Shown here one piece after another: positions 8,754 through 58,194 of a stretch of 64,000 bases of DNA (the first letter of the stretch is position 1; the number at the start of each line of letters is the position of its first letter). The stretch is taken from the IMG/VR virus record IMGVR_UViG_2541047857_000009, one strand, 5' to 3'. Made by a program: the position numbers and the translations under genes. The notes beneath the pieces are model-generated. The model searched no databases and was not told the origin of the DNA. It saw nothing but the letters and a program-made list of their open reading frames with translations. This stretch comes from a virus. Its lineage: Duplodnaviria > Heunggongvirae > Uroviricota > Caudoviricetes.

Positions 8754-8819
8754 AACGCATATATTTCATGTAAATATGATATCGTCGCCATAGCTTTGAT
8801 TGTCGACTGAATATAAAAA

Positions 8820-8845
8820 CCTCGCCACCGTGCGGGGTTTTGTCG
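8820..8845 (+). terminator. tR'-like intrinsic terminator downstream of Q
   Basis: CCTCGC-CACCGT-GCGGGG hairpin followed by TTTTGTCGTTT. Confidence 0.6.
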
Positions 8846-44377: not shown

Positions 44378-44667
44378 TGCCAGCATCCTTTTTGTATCGG
44401 ACGTAAACGGGCCAACATTGAAAGAATGCATATTTTATTTAATAGCTCCCGTTCGTGTTTTCTCTTGTTAATGGCATCTTCAGTAAATACAGGGTTACTG
44501 ATAGTGACACCAATTTCAAAACAACCTTCAGACGTATTAACGTTTGGTAATAACGTTTCCATTATCGCGTCCTCAACAATGAATTTTGTGATGCGGTGCC
44601 TGGTGCTTCCAGGTGACGTTAACCAGTTAACAATTAACGCCGGATACAGAGAATCCACCCATAACAC
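44374..44667 (-). CDS. Hypothetical protein (AT-rich; start may be internal Met at 44562)
   Basis: 97-aa ORF upstream of and overlapping the secreted-protein gene. Confidence 0.4.
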   Translation of the reverse strand: MLWVDSLYPALIVNWLTSPGSTRHRITKFIVEDAIMETLLPNVNTSEGCFEIGVTISNPVFTEDAINKRKHERELLNKICILSMLARLRPIQKGCWQ

Positions 44668-45127
44668 TGTTTTTGGTTTTAACTGTTCCGCGTGCGCTTA
44701 GCCGCATTCACCGCATCACAAAATTCACTTTAAAAAGGGCGGCAGAGCAGTCACGGAGTAAAACTGATACCGCCAAACGTCACCAGAAAATTGATAACAG
44801 AGGGCGTTGCAGCGGGGTTGTCACTTAAGCGTATGGTCAACCTGACAACCCGGTGTCCTCAACGGTGGAAGGAATAACCCCGCCATACTTACCGCCGCGC
44901 CATTTCGCGGATTGCCACAACCGGAAGCGCACGGTCGACGAAAATTTAACGACAGGCTATCTATGAACCAGCTACCTCGCCGTGCGCTTTCGCGTTATGG
45001 TCTGACTTTTCAGGGAAATATCCTTTCAGTAAACTGTCAGTGCCGGATGCTCACCCGTGTCCGGCGCACGCACTCCACCTCACCCGTGGAGAACTCCTTA
45101 ATTACCAACCTTAGCTTCGTTGGTTAG

Positions 45128-51516: not shown

Positions 51517-51731
51517 TTGATTTTATATTGGCGAGGTGACGGGAGTTAAGTAGAATTGCTGCGGGTGCTTGAGGCTATCTGCCTCAGGCATGAACACCAA
51601 AGGCAGATAGAGAAAAGCCCCAGTTAATATTACGCGTCCTGCAAGACGCTTAACATTAATCTGAGGCTCAATCTATGAACGGCAAATCTAGGTTAGCCTC
51701 TTACGTGCCGAAAGGCAAGGAGAAGCAGGCT

Positions 51732-51887
51732 ATGAAGCAGCAAAAGGCGATGTTAATCGCCCTGATCGTCATCTGTTTAACCGTCATAGTGACGGCACTG
51801 GTAACGAGGAAAGACCTCTGCGAGGTACGAATCCGAACCGGCCAGACGGAGGTCGCTGTCTTCACAGTTTACGAACCTGAGGAGTAA
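51732..51887 (+). CDS. hokD: Hok-family type I toxin (HokD-like)
   Basis: MKQQKAMLIALIVICLTVIVTALVTRKDLCEVRIRTGQTEVAVFT matches recalled HokD almost exactly. Confidence 0.85.
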   Translation: MKQQKAMLIALIVICLTVIVTALVTRKDLCEVRIRTGQTEVAVFTVYEPEE

Positions 51888-53393: not shown

Positions 53394-53768
53394 ATGCTCA
53401 TAGATTTGGTTTTACCTTACCCGCCGACGGTGAACACTTACTGGCGACGCCGTGGCAGCACATATTTTATCTCGGAGGAGGGAAAGCGTTATCGCCGGGC
53501 TGTGGCGCTTATTGTTCGCCAGCAGCGGCTGAAATTAAGCCTGTCCGGAAGGCTGGCGATAAAGGTGATTGCAGAGCCACCGGATAAGCGTCGTCGCGAC
53601 CTGGACAATATCCTGAAAGCACCGCTGGATGCGCTGACGCATGCGGGAGTGTTAATGGACGATGAGCAGTTTGATGAAATCAATATCGTTCGTGGTCAGC
53701 CAGTATCTGGTGGACGTATGGGGGTGAAGATTTACCCCATAATGCATGAAGAGCAGGTCAAAAAATGA
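53394..53768 (+). CDS. RusA-family Holliday junction resolvase
   Basis: PPTVNTYW and RRDLDNILKAPLDALT motifs; upstream of Q. Confidence 0.8.
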   Translation: MLIDLVLPYPPTVNTYWRRRGSTYFISEEGKRYRRAVALIVRQQRLKLSLSGRLAIKVIAEPPDKRRRDLDNILKAPLDALTHAGVLMDDEQFDEINIVRGQPVSGGRMGVKIYPIMHEEQVKK

Positions 53769-54586
53769 AACTGGAAGATTTACCGAAATACTACTCCCCA
53801 AAATCCCCTGGCCTGACCGATGCATCGGCCTCAACGTCAAAAGATGCGCTGAGTATCACTGATGTGATGGCCGCGCAGGGCATGACACAGAATCGGGCTG
53901 AGATGGGGTTTTCTGCGTTCCTGGGGAAAATGGGCATCAGTATGAATGACAGGGCGCGGGCAACAGAATTACTGGCAGATTATGCACTCAGTCGGTGCGA
54001 TCGTGTGGCGGCGTTGAGAAAACTTCCGGCAGAAATAAAACCGGTAGTGATGCGCATTATGGCTTCGTATGCGTTTGAAGATTATGCCCGTAGCGCGGCG
54101 AGCAAAAAACAGTGCCCTTGCTGTCACGGAAAAAAATTTATTGAAAGCGAGGTTTTTACAAACAAGATCCAGTATCCGGATGGTAAGCCACCAGTGTGGG
54201 CAAAGTGCACAAAAGGCGTGTATCCGTCTTACTGGGAAGAATGGAAAAAAGTCAGGGAGGTGGTAAAAGTTGCCTGTCCGGAGTGTGGCGGAAAGGGTGA
54301 GGTTTCCACCGCCTGTAAGGATTGCCGTGGGCGTGGTGTCGCCATTCATCGTGAAGAGTCGGTAAAACGTGGTATGCCTGTTATCAGAGATTGCCAGCGT
54401 TGTGGTGGTCGTGGCTGTGAAAGGCTGCCATCAACGGAGGCATTTAATGCCATATGCAAAGTGACGAGTGCTATCACGCTTGATACGTGGAAAAAATCAG
54501 TGAAACGCTTTTACGATACGTTGGTGGTTCGGTTTGACATTGAAGAGGCATGGGCGGAGCGGCAGTTAAAGAGGGTAACGCGATAG
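53765..54586 (+). CDS. Antiterminator Q (zinc-finger type)
   Basis: CPCCHG and CPECGGKGE...CKDCRGRG...CQRCGGRG zinc-binding motifs; followed by late terminator. Confidence 0.75.
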   Translation: MKLEDLPKYYSPKSPGLTDASASTSKDALSITDVMAAQGMTQNRAEMGFSAFLGKMGISMNDRARATELLADYALSRCDRVAALRKLPAEIKPVVMRIMASYAFEDYARSAASKKQCPCCHGKKFIESEVFTNKIQYPDGKPPVWAKCTKGVYPSYWEEWKKVREVVKVACPECGGKGEVSTACKDCRGRGVAIHREESVKRGMPVIRDCQRCGGRGCERLPSTEAFNAICKVTSAITLDTWKKSVKRFYDTLVVRFDIEEAWAERQLKRVTR

Positions 54587-54667
54587 TGTTGTTGATTTTT
54601 CCCGAATCTGTGGTAAATTTGCTCTAACGATGGGCGTTTTATGCCTGACGTTAGAAGATTTTTTACA

Positions 54668-54696
54668 CCCCGCCGCCTGGCGGGTTTTTTATGACT
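54668..54696 (+). terminator. tR'-like terminator downstream of Q
   Basis: CCCGCC-GCCT-GGCGGG hairpin followed by TTTTTTAT. Confidence 0.7.
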
Positions 54697-54810
54697 GAAA
54701 TCGCGTCAGTACAGTAAACGCGCTGGTGGCGGTGAATACCTGTCTTTCAGCTTGCTGGCTTTTTCGACAAGAGTTATTGGTGTGTCACGTTAACCGGAAA
54801 AGGAAAAGAC

Positions 54811-55008
54811 ATGCTAAAACAGCAGGATATGACAGAAACCGCCAGAGTGGTGTTTAATGAATTAAGCGTTACCGACCCGGCGACAGTCGGGGAGATAGCG
54901 CAGAATACTTACCTTTCACGCGAACGCTGCCAGTTAATACTGACTCAGCTGGTTATGGCGGGTCTGGCAGACTATCAGTTCGGTTGTTACAGACGCCTTC
55001 CGCAGTGA
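54811..55008 (+). CDS. Hypothetical small protein
   Basis: 65-aa ORF with AAAGGAAAAG SD-like sequence, followed by terminator. Confidence 0.45.
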   Translation: MLKQQDMTETARVVFNELSVTDPATVGEIAQNTYLSRERCQLILTQLVMAGLADYQFGCYRRLPQ

Positions 55009-55019
55009 AGGCTTTTTTA
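54995..55019 (+). terminator. Intrinsic terminator
   Basis: GCCTTC-CGCAGT-GAAGGC hairpin followed by TTTTTT. Confidence 0.6.
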
Positions 55020-55158
55020 TTTGTGGTAAATGGGCGGCTGGTGGGTGTTAGGGGCACCCACCAGCCATCTGCTCATGCGTCCGGATCACAAGCAAACCTC
55101 AGGCCCACTGCTTTGCGCAAAAGCAGAATGAGCCTATCAGAGACAGGCTTAATGATCC

Positions 55159-56208
55159 ATGCTTAATACTGTAAAAATATCCAGTTGTGAGTTAATCAAC
55201 GCCGACTGCCTGGAATTTATCCGGTCGTTACCCGAAAATTCTGTTGACCTGATAGTCACGGACCCGCCGTACTTTAAAGTGAAGCCTGAGGGCTGGGATA
55301 ACCAGTGGAAGGGCGACGATGATTACCTGAAGTGGCTGGACCAGTGTCTGGCGCAGTTCTGGCGGGTGCTGAAACCTGCCGGAAGTCTTTACCTGTTCTG
55401 TGGTCATCGCCTGGCATCTGATATCGAAATCATGATGCGTGAACGCTTCAGTGTGCTGAACCATATTATCTGGGCGAAGCCGTCCGGACGCTGGAACGGA
55501 TGCAACAAGGAAAGCCTGCGGGCGTATTTCCCCGCCACAGAGCGCATTCTGTTCGCGGAACATTATCAGGGGCCGTATCGTCCGAAAGATGCCGGGTATG
55601 CGGCGAAGGGCAGTGCACTGAAACAGCATGTGATGGCCCCGCTGATTTCTTACTTTCGTGATGCGCGCGCGGCCCTGGGGATAACGGCAAAACAGATTGC
55701 AGATGCCACAGGAAAGAAAAACATGGTGTCGCACTGGTTCAGTGCCAGTCAGTGGCAGCTACCGAATGAAAGCGATTATCTGAAATTACAGGCGCTGTTT
55801 GCCCGGGTGGCAGAAGAGAAGCATCGGCGTGGTGAACTGGAAAAGCTCCACCACCAGCTGGTGGATACGTATACCTCACTGAACCGGCAGTATGCGGAGC
55901 TGCTGAGTGAATATAAACATCTGCGGCGGTATTTTGGCGTGACGGTGCAGGTGCCGTATACCGATGTGTGGACGCATAAACCGGTGCAGTTCTATCCCGG
56001 GAAACATCCGTGCGAAAAACCGGCAGAAATGCTGCAGCAGATAATCAGCGCAAGTAGCCGTCCTGGTGATCTGGTTGCGGATTTTTTCATGGGGTCGGGT
56101 TCAACGGTAAAAGCGGCGATGGCACTGGGGCGTCGTGCGATTGGTGTTGAGCTGGAGACCGGACGTTTTGAGCAGACAGTCAGGGAAGTTCAGGATTTAA
56201 TCGTTTGA
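55159..56208 (+). CDS. DNA N6-adenine (or N4-cytosine) methyltransferase, orphan
   Basis: DPPY catalytic motif (VTDPPYF) and SAM-binding FFMGSGST; no adjacent restriction gene seen. Confidence 0.85.
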   Translation: MLNTVKISSCELINADCLEFIRSLPENSVDLIVTDPPYFKVKPEGWDNQWKGDDDYLKWLDQCLAQFWRVLKPAGSLYLFCGHRLASDIEIMMRERFSVLNHIIWAKPSGRWNGCNKESLRAYFPATERILFAEHYQGPYRPKDAGYAAKGSALKQHVMAPLISYFRDARAALGITAKQIADATGKKNMVSHWFSASQWQLPNESDYLKLQALFARVAEEKHRRGELEKLHHQLVDTYTSLNRQYAELLSEYKHLRRYFGVTVQVPYTDVWTHKPVQFYPGKHPCEKPAEMLQQIISASSRPGDLVADFFMGSGSTVKAAMALGRRAIGVELETGRFEQTVREVQDLIV

Positions 56209-56257
56209 AACGGATGAGATTGCAGAATTAATTACGCACCATTATTATTCTGCTCCC

Positions 56258-56333
56258 GGCCCTTTAGCTCAGTGGTGAGAGCGAGCGACTCATAATCGCC
56301 AGGTCGCTGGTTCAAATCCAGCAAGGGCCACCA
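56258..56333 (+). tRNA. tRNA with CAT anticodon (ileX/ileZ-like; Ile2 or Met)
   Basis: GGCCCTTTAGCTCAGTGG...CTCATAA...TTCAAATCC...GGGCCACCA; perfect acceptor stem. Confidence 0.85.
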
Positions 56334-56340
56334 TCACATA

Positions 56341-56417
56341 CCGCCATTAGCTCATCAGGAAAGAGCGCCAGCCTTCGAAGCTGGTTGCGCGGAGTTCGGG
56401 TCCCCGAAGGCGGTCCA
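56341..56417 (+). tRNA. tRNA-Arg-like (anticodon TCG), degenerate stems
   Basis: Clear anticodon arm CCAGC-CTTCGAA-GCTGG, D-stem GCTC/GAGC, T-loop TTCGGGT, 3' TCCA; mismatches in acceptor and T stems. Confidence 0.45.
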
Positions 56418-56440
56418 TTATCTGTATCCTGCGTTGTTAG

Positions 56441-56517
56441 CTCAGCCGGACAGAGCAATTGCCTTCTAAGCAATCGGTCACTGGTTCGAATCCAGTACAA
56501 CGCGCCACACTTATTTT
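56441..56517 (+). tRNA. tRNA-Arg (anticodon TCT)
   Basis: Perfect cloverleaf: acceptor GCGTTGT/ACAACGC, anticodon loop CTTCTAA, T-loop TTCGAAT, 3' GCCA. Confidence 0.85.
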
Positions 56518-56522
56518 CCCTG

Positions 56523-56548
56523 GCTCGCTTTTGCGGGCTTTTTTTTAA
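56523..56548 (+). terminator. Intrinsic terminator after tRNA cluster
   Basis: GCTCGC-TTTT-GCGGGC hairpin followed by TTTTTTTT. Confidence 0.6.
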
Positions 56549-56550
56549 AT

Positions 56551-56767
56551 GTCTCACAATTCAGGCGGTTGACTGTTGTCTGGTTTGCGGGGAGTTTGTT
56601 AAAAGAAACTGGCATGGTGAATCCCCCTGTGCGGAGGGGCAATCAGCGAGTAGGTATATGGGATAATCGCGGATTCAGGTGCTGGTACTGAATTCACCGG
56701 GAGGCACCCGGCACCATGCAATGGCACATAGCGCCACTCTCCAGCCCCTCTCCGGAGGGGCTTTTCT
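56551..56767 (+). ncRNA. Putative structured sRNA-like module, copy A
   Basis: Shares blocks CTCACAATTCAG, TTGACNGTTG, GCATGGTGAATCCCCCTG-GCGGAGGGGC, CACCGGGAGGCACCCGGCACCATG with copy B; ends in GCCCCTC-TCCG-GAGGGGC plus TTTTCT. Confidence 0.45.
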
Positions 56768-57020
56768 GTGCCGGATACATCACAGTTTCTGGAACCTTAG
56801 GTACTACAGTATCAGTCAGGGTGCTATATTTTCAGATGTGATGAAAGCCTGTCAGCAGGCAGGGCGTATCGGAAATGACCCAGTAGAGAAAACGTTGACT
56901 CAGATACCGGTGCTGAGTTACCGGGAAACCGGCATCACATGACCGCTATCCTTCCAGGCCCATCCGCTCCGGTGGGCCTTTTTACTGCAGAAAACAGGTT
57001 CCCCGTTAAATGCTATGTTG

Positions 57021-57253
57021 CTCACAATTCAGTAAGTTGACAGTTGCCTGTCAGACTGGGCATTTGTTAAAAAAATTTCGCATGGTGAATCCCCCTGAGC
57101 GGAGGGGCGACTGGTGACGGTATAATCTCTGATTATCAAAACGAGAATGACGCGGGTTTAGTGGCACCGGGCTGAACTCACCGGGAGGCACCCGGCACCA
57201 TGTGCATGATGATACAGATACGCGGCTTTAGCCCCTCTCCGGAGGGGTTTTCT
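57021..57253 (+). ncRNA. Putative structured sRNA-like module, copy B
   Basis: Same conserved blocks and terminal hairpin as copy A; contains TATAAT near 57130. Confidence 0.45.
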
Positions 57254-57482
57254 TGTGGGCAAAAAAAGCCCGCGCTGGGAGACGCGGGCGGCAAGGAATA
57301 AACAATAAAACGTGAAGTAATATTTCAGCTGGCGAATAATACCCCATAGTAATCACTCTGCGCAACTGCGCGGTCTTTTTCGAATTGCGGGCTGTCGTCT
57401 CTCTTCTGCCATTGTCCTGTAACTTCCGGACTTCAGCCCGCTCCTTATTTTACTCACAATATTATCCCGGCCGGGAGGATTC

Positions 57483-57710
57483 ATGGCATTTAAACACTAT
57501 GACGTGGTCAGGGCGGTATCGCCGTCAGACCTTGCGAAACGACTGACACAAAAACTGAAGGAGGGCTGGCAGCCGTTTGGTAGTCCGGTGGCCATAACCC
57601 CTTATACCCTGATGCAGGCGATTGCAGCAGAAGGTGATGTGGTGGTCAGTGGTGCAACTGAGCCGGATTGGTACTACGTCATCGTACTGGCCCGGCATTC
57701 CAGGCCATAA
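57483..57710 (+). CDS. Hypothetical protein
   Basis: 75-aa ORF with strong SD GGGAGG six nt before ATG. Confidence 0.55.
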   Translation: MAFKHYDVVRAVSPSDLAKRLTQKLKEGWQPFGSPVAITPYTLMQAIAAEGDVVVSGATEPDWYYVIVLARHSRP

Positions 57711-57978
57711 AAGACAGTCTGGCAGTGGGACTAAATGCACTGACGCTGATGGATATTACCAAAAATGTAACGTATGGCGTTGAGATAGAAAGTCTGGCGC
57801 TGGAGATAAATGCACCGGCATCATCATAAAAAGTGAGCCAGTCAAATGGAAGGTATCGTTAAACTCACCGGTAGTGTCAGTGGGTCGTCTGAGACGCTTG
57901 CATGAGTTATCAGAGCCATCAGTAGTTAACTGGTGGCTTTTTTATTGTTTTCAGCTTCCGGATAACGGGAGACGGGGT

Positions 57979-58194
57979 ATGGACCAGATGGAAAAAATCA
58001 CAACAGGTGTGTCATACACCACGTCAGCGGTGGGAACGGGCTACTGGTTCCTGCAGTTGCTGGACAGGGTTTCCCCGTCTCAGTGGGCGGCAATAGGCGT
58101 GCTGGGGAGTCTGCTGTTTGGGCTGCTGACATATCTGACTAACCTGTATTTCAAAATCAGAGAGGACCGTCGTAAGGCGGCACGGGGAGAGTAA
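57979..58194 (+). CDS. Holin (EssQ/EssD, phage 21 S-type)
   Basis: [29 protein letters not shown]...[15 protein letters not shown]; dual-start Met-X-X-Met. Confidence 0.85.

Follow-up and report, generated by a model that had tools for sequence, protein, structure and literature searches.

The stretch of DNA analyzed here, a 64-kb (64,000 nt) window, very probably carries three paralogous and independently transcribed sRNA genes of the STnc100 family, which together with a convergent sRNA-like gene make up late-region ‘moron’ cargo of a lambdoid prophage of ExPEC E. coli. The two outer genes (units 1 and 2) are copies of an already catalogued prophage sRNA family, and the finding is in that respect real but ordinary. 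The middle unit is a diverged third paralogue. The features of the array and its surroundings are listed in Table 1.

A repeat search confirmed the direct repeats, with an 88-nt block (56553-56640 versus 57021-57108, 80% identical), a 31-nt block (56688-56718 versus 57172-57202, 97% identical) and the terminator blocks (56743-56770 versus 57230-57257, 89% identical). The motifs CTCACAATTCAG and TTTGTTAAAA each occur exactly twice in the window, once per unit and nowhere else. These blocks and exact motif pairs bear out the two repeat units of a preliminary description of this DNA, which had called them tandem. They are indeed related, but they do not lie head to tail: their starts are separated by 468-484 nt and the 250-nt spacer between them holds a third, diverged copy with its own terminator. 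The preliminary description overlooked this copy as well as the convergent partner on the minus strand.

Unit 1 (56583-56773; 136.3 bits, E 7e-30) and unit 2 (57051-57260; 161 bits, E 3e-36) both match the full model (1-206) of Rfam family STnc100 (RF02076), with E-values that exclude a chance match. Membership was decided by the curated Rfam gathering score (GA) of 47 bits, which both units pass, while the middle unit (30.1 bits) stays below it. Our own core model, R1, scores units 1 and 2 at 107 and 106.9 bits, respectively, and a 219-nt alignment of unit 1 with O157 phage Nil3 shows 100% identity. This supports the earlier suggestion that an sRNA gene has been duplicated in the late region, both units being full-length, high-scoring STnc100 members. 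The accompanying statement that no known RNA family could be assigned was wrong, since the Rfam scan proposed there as a check returned a known element, an outcome that it had itself listed as speaking against its reading. The gain in annotation is small: STnc100 is the label that any Infernal/Rfam pass (e.g., Bakta) assigns to units 1 and 2, and Hfq-bound prophage sRNAs homologous to them have been on record since 2008-2014.

Table 1. Features of the sRNA array and related elements in the window (positions in nt; bits are covariance model scores).
Feature	Position	Strand	Details	Basis
Junction-fold copy in the dicF-dicB spacer (Qin)	44591-44716	-	R1 48 bits, Rfam 37.7 bits	R1, Rfam
Candidate late promoter pR', right after Q	54592..54684	+	TTGATT-17-TAAATT; AACGAT pause element; tR' 54669-54684	Sequence, terminator scan
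tRNA-Ile(CAU)/Arg(UCG)/Arg(UCU) cluster	56258..56539	+	Terminator 56522-56539	Upstream context
Unit 1, putative promoter region	56553..56611	+	Conserved upstream box CTCACAATTCAG 56553-56564; TTGACT 56569-56574; -35-like TTGTCT 56576-56581; 18-nt spacer; extended -10 TGTTAAAAG 56597-56605	Read from sequence
Unit 1, predicted RNA (STnc100 member)	56612..56770	+	~159 nt	Rfam, R1, MFE fold, terminator scan
Unit 1, four-way junction core	56612-56719	+	P0 56612-19/56712-19; P1 56624-28/56635-39; P3 56671-78/56688-95; P4 56697-701/56707-11	MFE fold
Unit 1, linker	56720-56742	+	Contains CUCUCCA
Unit 1, terminator	56743-56762	+	Followed by U-run	Terminator scan
Middle unit, diverged third paralogue	56822..56985	+		Rfam (sub-threshold), R1, fold, terminator
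Middle unit, extended -10	56822-56830	+	TGCTATATT
Middle unit, core	56836-56940	+	Closing helix AUGUGAUG/CAUCACAU; P1 GCCUG/CAGGC; P3 GACUCAG/CUGAGUU; P4 CCGG-GAAA-CCGG
Middle unit, single-stranded linker	56941-56955	+	GACCGCUAUCCUUCCA
Middle unit, terminator	56956-56979	+	Followed by UUUUU	Terminator scan
Unit 2, putative promoter region	57021..57079	+	Upstream box CTCACAATTCAG 57021-57032; TTGACA 57037-57042; -35-like TTGCCT 57044-57049; extended -10 TGTTAAAAA 57065-57073	Geometry as in unit 1
Unit 2, predicted RNA (STnc100 member)	57080..57257	+	~178 nt	Rfam, R1, folds, terminator scan
Unit 2, core	57080-57203	+	Longer variable P2 arm
Unit 2, linker	57204-57229	+
Unit 2, terminator	57230-57249	+	Followed by U-run	Terminator scan
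Convergent sRNA-like element	57261..57349	-		Terminator scan, sequence
Terminator of the convergent element	57289-57268	-	GCCCGCGTCTCCCAGCGCGGGC+T7

Minimum free energy (MFE) folds from the predicted +1 to the terminator gave the same architecture in all three units (P0, P1, P2, P3, P4, linker and terminator), with a linker that is partly to fully unpaired in unit 1 and the middle unit. As modeled, each unit reads as a promoter, a 5' four-way junction, a variable single-stranded linker and an intrinsic terminator. Fold prediction and covariance analysis had both been put forward as checks in the preliminary description, and the covariation found over 51 distinct homologues (129 matches) supports the four-way junction. 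On a model-based alignment, the fitting of which favours the structure, 97.8% of the cells are paired versus 90.2% in shuffles and 37-49% in slid controls, and 21 of the 26 pairs have changed on both sides versus 6.3 in shuffles; none of 500 shuffles reached the observed values. Pairs were counted on this alignment because MAFFT misplaced the 3' strands of the divergent sequences PasD and L209. The pattern used to collect most of these homologues leaves no freedom in the 5' strand of P0 and P1, so that variation in these two helices comes from a few divergent members (the middle unit, PasD, Fels-1 and the dicB copy). The pattern CATGGTGAATCCNCC (14 specified bases) yielded only chance matches in unrelated phyla when run on genome contigs; the homologues were retrieved with a longer pattern on viral contigs. 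The make-up of the family is modular, a single core type being combined with many unrelated linkers and terminators, and PasD and L209 are devoid of the P4 hairpin. No STnc100-like unit was found in the Salmonella prophage Gifsy-2 or in the stretch of Gifsy-1 that was examined (tail genes, outside the late-regulatory region).

A scan for sigma-70 promoters on the plus strand near the units returned no canonical -35/-10 pair, and the promoter call therefore relies on homology and on the geometry of the extended -10. Promoter variants keep TGnTAAAA(G/A) at the same place relative to the G of GCAUGG, and this geometry puts the +1 at the RNA-seq 5' end of PasD2 in EPEC (PMC8550237 Table S6). The start sites in Table 1 are predictions from this geometry and from homology. 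A conserved TCACA box at -58 to -54 may be a class I CRP half-site. Two other readings of the upstream region were rejected: the TTGACN block lies 24-25 nt from the -10, which is too far for a -35 (TTGTCT/TTGCCT at 18 nt fits better), and TGGCA as a sigma-54 motif has the wrong GG/GC spacing and is missing from unit 2. The Northern bands of EcOnc27, the STnc100 RNA of O157 Sakai, measure ~235/247 nt and are longer than the 177 nt predicted from start to terminator; the excess may reflect either a start further upstream or read-through into the convergent partner. The Rfam STnc100 model starts 29 nt upstream of the predicted +1.

At the 3' side, 15 terminator-like sites were detected in 54500-58000 versus 3.1 +/- 1.9 in shuffles. 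The preliminary description had ascribed the same strong terminator with a T-run to each unit. The terminators were found again, with T-runs that are short and interrupted (TTTTCTGTG in unit 1, TTTTCTTGTG in unit 2); for strong termination and Hfq binding, the U-tracts of both units are short.

Gene order was taken from the RefSeq annotation of the identical NU14 locus and from Pfam, and runs Q (PF03589, E 2e-49, and RefSeq annotation), DNA methyltransferase, three tRNAs, the units, a DUF1737 (nanS-p) remnant, holin, lysozyme and Rz. The units thus lie between Q/pR' and the lysis cassette of a lambdoid prophage, the location expected of STnc100, and the order is that of VT2-Sakai. The element following Q presumably corresponds to lambda pR', which it resembles in its AACGAT pause, and Q-modified polymerase starting there would have to traverse all three units before reaching the lysis genes. 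In this respect the units are like lambda 6S RNA and StxS, which are also short promoter-to-terminator RNAs of the late region traversed by Q-modified polymerase. However, they are not adjacent to Q (~2 kb away, beyond the methyltransferase gene and the three tRNAs) and have no qut or pause element. The array occupies the slot between the tRNA cluster and the nanS-p remnant, where Stx phages carry stx: in VT2-Sakai, the same tRNAs are followed by stx2AB and then by the STnc100 gene, behind which lies AsxR in convergent orientation. A non-Stx ExPEC prophage with the same sRNA cargo at the exact stx slot bears on the origin and function of EcOnc27, for variants of which a statistical link to HUS risk has recently been reported (PMC12711010).

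Pairs of convergent sRNAs have been described from the moron site of prophages (PMC4104026, PMC7873438), and eight Sakai prophages carry them. The minus-strand element abuts the 3' end of unit 2, at the position held by AsxR/AgvB in O157 prophages. It shares with these anti-sRNA pairs (Tree et al., 2014) the arrangement of a terminator-bearing element on the opposite strand, abutting an STnc100-type 3' end. AgvB and AsxR are defined by a conserved ~42-nt 3' region, a length of 51-60 nt and convergence with an STnc100-type gene; position and convergence match here, but the body aligns weakly with AsxR and neither Rfam model (RF02702/RF02703) matches the element at E<=1. The body rather resembles an uncharacterised EPEC RIL-seq candidate, E2348C_1409.E2348C_1408.IGR (PMC8550237 Fig. 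S5). A search of the minus strand of the nanS-p remnant (57700-57900) for a PasA/PasC-like antisense sRNA gave no convincing alignment with the EPEC PasA region.

For homologues of the STnc100 family, expression, Northern detection and binding by Hfq are all documented (PMC4104026, PMC7873438, PMC5331693, PMC8550237). The member known as EcOnc27 in O157 Sakai and as sRNA103 in EDL933/86-24 is Hfq-bound and lies downstream of stx2B in O157 phages. It has the same four-way junction, to which units 1 and 2 match over the full model, and the same position after the moron slot and before nanS-p and the lysis genes, with a convergent partner behind. It differs in that the prophage analyzed here has no stx and holds three copies in a row instead of one, and in that the linker and terminator of the Sakai copy are unlike those found here. 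In the VT2-Sakai copy, the Hfq CRAC peak of EcOnc27 (Sakai 1268411-1268490) maps from P4 through the closing strand and linker to the terminator. EDL933 expresses 11 STnc100 copies, one of them confirmed by Northern blot. Overexpression of sRNA103 raised fimZ and espA; no target of an STnc100 copy has been validated as direct. PasD1 and PasD2 (EPEC E2348/69; homologues of EcOnc13) are more distant homologues, reported as structural relatives of STnc100 (bioRxiv 10.64898/2026.05.13.724894), and share the closing helix GCAUGGUG, P1, P3, the promoter geometry, the junction-linker-terminator layout and a position upstream of nanS-p or holin. They lack P4, forming a three-way junction, score 38-41 bits (under the Rfam threshold) and have the seed UGUGAG in the linker, followed by a GGCUGCGC...GCGCAGCC terminator. 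The three units are not of this type: P4 is present in all of them, UGUGAG is absent from every linker, and their terminators differ.

From these relatives, a working model of the array can be proposed. A sigma-70 extended -10 promoter would be active in the lysogen, with the RNA beginning at the first base of the closing helix. The 5' two thirds would fold into the compact four-way junction as a stable, nuclease-resistant body, and the linker, terminator hairpin and U-tail may serve, by analogy, as the Hfq-binding and target-pairing module. As the linkers differ among the three copies, each copy would act on mRNA or sRNA targets of its own. The three terminators might also shield the lysis genes, in the lysogen, from transcription that starts upstream; once the prophage is induced, they would be read through by Q-modified polymerase coming from pR'. 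Expression in the lysogen, detection on Northern blots, Hfq binding at the 3' module and a linker seed would all carry over from the homologues, while the seed regions of these particular copies, the read-through under Q and all targets are what we infer for this prophage.

The deep conservation of the junction exceeds the need of a generic stabiliser, which counts against a role as mere RNA body. The conserved four-way junction could itself be functional, as a protein-, polymerase- or ligand-binding RNA domain of lambdoid phages with an effect, in cis or in trans, on processing, stability or elongation/termination, the linkers being secondary. We consider this explanation, which partly overlaps the sRNA reading, unlikely, though it survives better than the others. 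Between E. coli and Salmonella Fels-1, the junction nucleotides GGUGAAUCC and UCACCGGGAGGCACCCGGCACC hardly change, in contrast to P2, P3, linker and terminator, and the EcOnc27 transcripts exceed the promoter-to-terminator length. Yet PasD, like L209, does without P4 and is still abundant as an Hfq-dependent sRNA; both the Hfq CRAC peak and the seed of PasD fall in the 3' module, recent horizontal spread may explain the high conservation, and no partner, ligand or activity of the junction is known. The same fold also occurs in the dicF-dicB spacer and before kilR, that is, as an operon 5' leader and not as a free-standing sRNA, and hints at a function of the core that the base-pairing model does not explain. 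Equally improbable is a reading in which the STnc100 junction forms a self-contained structured RNA domain of lambdoid phages, with a molecular function of its own such as binding of a protein or RNA polymerase, or control of processing or stability. Phages would then reuse it in two settings, as the 5' body of several moron-slot Hfq sRNAs (here three in a row) and as the 5' leader of the division-inhibitor genes dicB and kilR. The copies before dicB (Qin) and kilR (Rac) each follow directly on a DicF-type hairpin, and we found no description of either in the literature consulted. The dicB gene of Qin is present in most E. coli, including K-12.

The sRNA reading extends to the middle unit, for which a score of 30.1 bits (E 2.4e-4) under the GA leads to filing as a diverged relative and not as a member by the Rfam rule. 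Model R1 gives it 61.5 bits (E 2e-12), the sequence itself being part of the R1 seed alignment, and its unconstrained MFE fold yields the family architecture. One or more copies, and chiefly this one, might nevertheless be a decaying duplicate or a plain terminator insulator acting without any RNA-level function. This is somewhat less probable still than a junction domain, although the sub-threshold score, the want of a good -35 and the scarcity of homologues (five phage records) point that way, as does unit B of Fels-1, which has no obvious terminator. Against decay, 4 of the 8 closing-helix pairs differ from those of unit 1 and every one is altered on both sides, and P1, P3 and P4 are kept with different sequences; the middle unit retains its fold via compensatory changes. 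Its extended -10 is also close to consensus, its terminator has 9 bp and its linker is wholly unpaired, and homologues with 86% identity hold the same position in five phage genomes, including that of phage 640R1. Copies with an identical score (61.5 bits) were found in 8 IMG/VR contigs. Arrays of 3-4 diverged paralogues occur in this window and also in phage 640R1, Salmonella phage Fels-1 and IMG/VR contigs, and as some copies score below threshold while their fold is kept by compensatory change, copy numbers derived from Rfam are underestimates.

It is very improbable that the RNAs are small mRNAs or dual-function RNAs from which a short peptide is made. All three units do have an ATG in the closing helix, opening ORFs of 41, 33 and 33 codons. 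The preliminary description had held that the short ORFs are not conserved in frame, which is incorrect between units 1 and 2, where the ATG-initiated ORFs share a frame across the terminator (SPSPEG), and correct across homologues, where ORFs from the same ATG give at least eight unrelated peptides of 2-68 codons that run through the terminator in variable frames. The stop codon lies beyond the terminator, so that a terminated RNA would contain none; pairing takes up the start codon along with most of the putative SD region, and substitutions track base-pairing rather than codons. Footprint-to-transcript ratios are high in some EDL933 copies (STnc100_10 3.21, STnc100_1 2.16), but other copies are at 0.04-0.6. 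A conserved coding gene was rejected, as the peptides are not conserved among homologues and a Pfam search of the seven overlapping ORFs gave no match.

Least probable of all, and largely refuted, is that the units are cis-regulatory leaders or attenuators in which alternative pairing controls translation from the GGAGG/ATG or read-through to the next unit and the lysis genes. The lysis genes do follow the units on the same strand, GGAGG lies 11 nt ahead of the ATG, and in units 1 and 2 P1 and the terminator have the same 3' arm (GGAGGGGC), so that an exchange of partners between them is possible in principle. An antiterminator switch of this kind was rejected, as the likeness is not conserved in relatives: it is absent from the middle unit, from PasD and from the Fels-1 copies, as well as from many IMG/VR variants in which the same core is joined to unrelated terminators. 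The hairpin formerly proposed to hide GGAGG next to the ATG (CCGGG/CCCGG) exists as helix P4, but just two G of GGAGG are within the stem, and the ATG is part of the covarying closing helix (CAUGGUG/CACCAUG). Sequestration of a ribosome binding site is unsupported because of this location and of the unconserved ORFs. The mutually exclusive terminator/antiterminator pairing of riboswitches and attenuators was not found either: the core occurs with unrelated linkers, terminators and downstream genes, and in PasD and L209 without the hairpin. Rfam gave no cis-regulatory match at the units, and the homologues are discrete RNAs on Northern blots. A ‘hypothetical protein’ pseudogene annotated in RefSeq on the minus strand over unit 1 is best read as an annotation artefact.

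The two repeat units lying between the tRNA cluster and the nanS-p remnant are members of the STnc100 family of sRNAs (Rfam RF02076); the finding is already known. An Rfam scan of the whole window at gathering threshold (47 bits for STnc100) matched unit 1 with 136.3 bits and unit 2 with 161 bits. The preliminary description, which could assign them to no known RNA family, had named an Rfam match to a known element as a refuting result, and the two matches are of this kind.

Features of the region between the Q gene and the lysis genes (window positions)
Feature	Position	Strand	Remarks
Q antiterminator	53765-54586		Pfam PF03589
Candidate pR'	54592-54684	+	directly 3' of Q; TTGATT-17-TAAATT, AACGAT element, tR'
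Small ORF, then DNA methyltransferase			between Q and the tRNAs
tRNA-Ile(CAU), tRNA-Arg, tRNA-Arg	56258-56507		own terminator 56522-56539
Three units, then convergent element			3' of tRNA terminator, 5' of DUF1737 remnant
Unit 1	56583-56773	+	full STnc100 model, E 7e-30
Unit 1 upstream box	56553-56561		CTCACAATT, about -59 to -51 of predicted start
Unit 1 linker			CAAUGGCACAUAGCGCCACUCUCCA
Middle unit upstream box	56779-56787		ATCACAGTT, about 50-60 nt 5' of predicted start
Middle unit linker			GACCGCUAUCCUUCCA
Unit 2	57051-57260	+	full STnc100 model, E 3e-36
Unit 2 upstream box	57021-57029		CTCACAATT, about -59 to -51 of predicted start
Unit 2 linker			UGCAUGAUGAUACAGAUACGCGGCUUUA
Convergent sRNA-like element	57261-57349	-	terminator 57289-57268
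DUF1737 ORF	57483-57710	+	N-terminal nanS-p sialate esterase remnant, esterase part missing; RefSeq pseudogene
Holin, YdfR-family protein, lysozyme, Rz			3' of DUF1737 remnant

The repetition was recovered where it had been described. A repeat search returned an 88-nt block (56553-56640/57021-57108, 80% identical), a 31-nt block (56688-56718/57172-57202, 97%) and the terminator blocks (56743-56770/57230-57257), and a terminator scan placed a GC-rich hairpin followed by a T-run at each of 56743-56762 and 57230-57249. CTCACAATTCAG and TTTGTTAAAA each occur exactly twice in the window, in these units only. Between 54500 and 58000 there are 15 terminator-like sites, versus 3.1 ± 1.9 in shuffles. 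The modules are repeated but not arranged head to tail: 468-484 nt separate their starts, and the spacer contains a third STnc100-like copy. Over 1.3 kb, the window matches ExPEC chromosomes (e.g., NU14, UM146, ATCC 11775) with 100% identity. Of 5,426 complete E. coli genomes, 318 contain 80% or more of the stretch from the tRNAs through the units, and 3,338 contain part of it.

This third copy (middle unit, 56812-56985) is a diverged STnc100 relative under the Rfam cut-off, found at a permissive threshold with 30.1 bits (E 2.4e-4), below the gathering score. A core covariance model made from 30 diverse homologues gives 56836-56940 a score of 61.5 bits, the middle-unit sequence itself being part of the training set. 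Its closing helix (P0) is AUGUGAUG/CAUCACAU versus GCAUGGUG/CACCAUGC in unit 1, with both sides changed in four of eight pairs, and P1 (GCCUG/CAGGC), P3 (GACUCAG/CUGAGUU) and P4 (CCGG-GAAA-CCGG) keep their helices with other letters. An unconstrained fold of 56836-56985 alone returns the family architecture, with the 16-nt linker wholly unpaired. A near-consensus extended -10 (TGCTATATT, 56822-56830) precedes the unit and a 9-bp terminator (56956-56979) closes it. Five phages, vB_EcoS-640R1 among them, have an 86%-identical homologue at the equivalent position, flanked on both sides by STnc100 genes, and eight IMG/VR contigs reach the identical core-model score, indicating that the middle unit recurs there.

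Each unit consists of a promoter region, a four-way junction (P0, P1, a variable P2, P3 and P4), a linker and an intrinsic terminator. Searching 100 sources with the core model yielded 129 matches, 51 of them distinct. In the alignment, which was fitted to this model, standard pairs occupy 97.8% of cells, versus 90.2% after shuffling and 37-49% with partners slid, and two-sided changes are seen in 21 of 26 pairs, versus 6.3 (shuffled) and 6-8 (slid); none of 500 shuffles matched the observed pairing values. Most homologues were retrieved by a pattern fixing the 5' strands of P0 and P1, so that variation in these two helices stems from divergent members (middle unit, PasD, Fels-1 and the dicB copy). 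P3 is the most variable helix, with forms including GGAUUCAG/CUGAAUUC, GGGUUCAG/CUGAACUC, GGGUUCGG/CCGAACUC, GGAUUCUG/CAGAAUUC and GGGACGCUG/CAGCGUCUC. The CCGGG/CCCGG hairpin of the preliminary description is P4, and the neighboring ATG is part of the 3' strand of P0.

A cis-regulatory leader, the other reading proposed earlier, is very unlikely for these units: one core is found combined with a wide variety of unrelated linkers and terminators and ahead of differing genes, and P4 is absent altogether from PasD and from contig L209. Within units 1 and 2, P1 and the terminator have identical 3' arms, a possible hint of a switch; this identity was not found in the middle unit, PasD or Fels-1, and a P1/terminator exchange is therefore rejected as a family feature. 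A coding gene is very unlikely, because the ORFs from the P0 ATG are not conserved among 122 homologous units (at least eight unrelated N-terminal peptides; ORFs of 2-68 codons, passing through the terminator in varied frames and all extending beyond it) and none of seven ORFs overlapping the units has a Pfam match. Antisense to the RNA core, RefSeq lists ‘hypothetical protein’ ORFs or pseudogenes in unit 1 (56602-56727, minus strand; B0908_RS26830, NU14) and PasD1 (L003 3301-3699, minus strand); these appear to be artefacts of gene annotation across an RNA.

The 5' end of PasD2, as given by RNA-seq coverage, is the G of GCAUGGUG (PMC8550237 Table S6). By analogy, the +1 of units 1 and 2 would be the equivalent G, with canonical extended -10 geometry. 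Unit 1 would then carry TG at -15/-14 and TAAAAG at -12 to -7 (56597-56605), and unit 2 a predicted extended -10 TGTTAAAAA (57065-57073); a T/A-rich -10 is retained at the equivalent position in other promoter variants. Weak -35 hexamers (TTGTCT, TTGCCT) lie 18 nt 5' of the -10 hexamer. The TTGACN block is unfit as a -35 because it lies 7 nt further upstream than these. In the middle unit and other variants the upstream box is kept as TCAC(A/G)nTT, and its exact form also precedes Fels-1 unit A (L247 2383-2391), at a distance of about 80 nt to the closing helix. Speculatively, the TCACA within the box (-58 to -54) may belong to a class I CRP half-site centered at -61.5. The Rfam STnc100 model begins 29 nt 5' of the predicted +1. 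EcOnc27, the O157 homologue, gives Northern bands of about 235/247 nt (PMC4104026 Table S2) versus 177 nt between predicted +1 and terminator in the VT2-Sakai STnc100 gene, which implies either a start further upstream or read-through into the convergent partner. Both points count against the predicted +1.

Convergent sRNA pairs at the ‘moron’ site 3' of pR' have been published for eight Sakai prophages (Tree et al.), and the arrangement seen here is such a pair. EcOnc27 (sRNA103), an Hfq-bound sRNA, is encoded by the STnc100 copy 75 nt downstream of stx2B, and EDL933 has 11 expressed STnc100 copies, one of them Northern-verified. VT2-Sakai shares the gene order of this region, with AsxR convergent behind its STnc100 gene, but carries an stx2AB insertion between the tRNA terminator and that gene. 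The convergent element next to unit 2 occupies the AsxR/AgvB position of O157 prophages; it has no Rfam match to AgvB or AsxR, and its body (…UUAUUGUUUAUUCCUUGCCGCCCGCGUCUCCCAGCGCGGGCUUUUUUU) is similar to the EPEC RIL-seq candidate E2348C_1409.E2348C_1408.IGR. PasD1 and PasD2 of EPEC are reported structural relatives of STnc100. None of the three units is a PasD, since they keep P4 and lack the seed UGUGAG, whereas PasD has the seed and no P4. Phage 640R1 carries an equal triple (L244 2829-3403) and Salmonella phage Fels-1 three units between Q and holin (L247 2464-2585, 2859-2962, 4001-4130); one IMG/VR contig has a four-unit array (L127, four hits). Arrays of three or four diverged STnc100-like copies are common between Q and the lysis genes, and several copies, falling under the gathering score, would be missed by annotation at that score.

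The candidate promoter and AACGAT element after Q resemble the lambda late promoter pR' and its pause signal. Together with tR' (CCCGCCGCCTGGCGGG+T6, 54669-54684), this candidate would yield a short StxS/6S-like RNA; none of the three units is an RNA of this kind. Q-modified polymerase would pass at least eight terminators before holin, including those of the three units.

The EcOnc27 Hfq CRAC peak (Sakai 1268411-1268490), placed on the VT2-Sakai locus (L245 3654-3733) with AsxR coordinates as anchor, covers P4, the P0 3' strand, linker and terminator, and the PasD seed sits in the linker. Both observations suggest linker plus terminator as the putative Hfq-binding and pairing module, for which the junction may serve as a stable 5' body. 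Two of the three linkers finish in C/U-rich, anti-Shine-Dalgarno-like runs. As the three linkers differ, the paralogues would be predicted to address separate targets. Effects reported for the family concern fimZ and espA and are indirect only.

The core model also matches 44591-44716 (minus strand) with 48 bits, between DicF and the dicB start codon (about 44561, minus strand); Rfam STnc100 scores 37.7 bits there, under the cut-off. This copy has a 12-bp closing helix (UGUGAUGCGGUG/CACCGCAUCACA), P3 GGCGUUAA/UUAACGUC and P4 CCUGG-AAGCA-CCAGG, and the dicF-dicB spacer occurs in MG1655 and altogether in 4,633 of 5,426 E. coli genomes. Rac has an 81%-similar copy upstream of kilR, in the sieB-kilR interval (E. 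coli NCTC9064, L249 627-753; 48 bits), again just 3' of a DicF-like hairpin with a T-run, and its P3 differs from that of the Qin copy by compensatory changes. These copies are leaders inside an operon and not free-standing sRNAs; they give ground for a novel but improbable reading, in which the four-way junction would have a function of its own. The downstream genes, dicB and kilR, both encode cell-division inhibitors. Other catalogued prophage RNAs that the Rfam scan found in the window are sok (51563-51737, plus strand, 113 bits), isrJ (8769-8841, plus strand, 65 bits) and DicF (44737-44788, minus strand, 77 bits).
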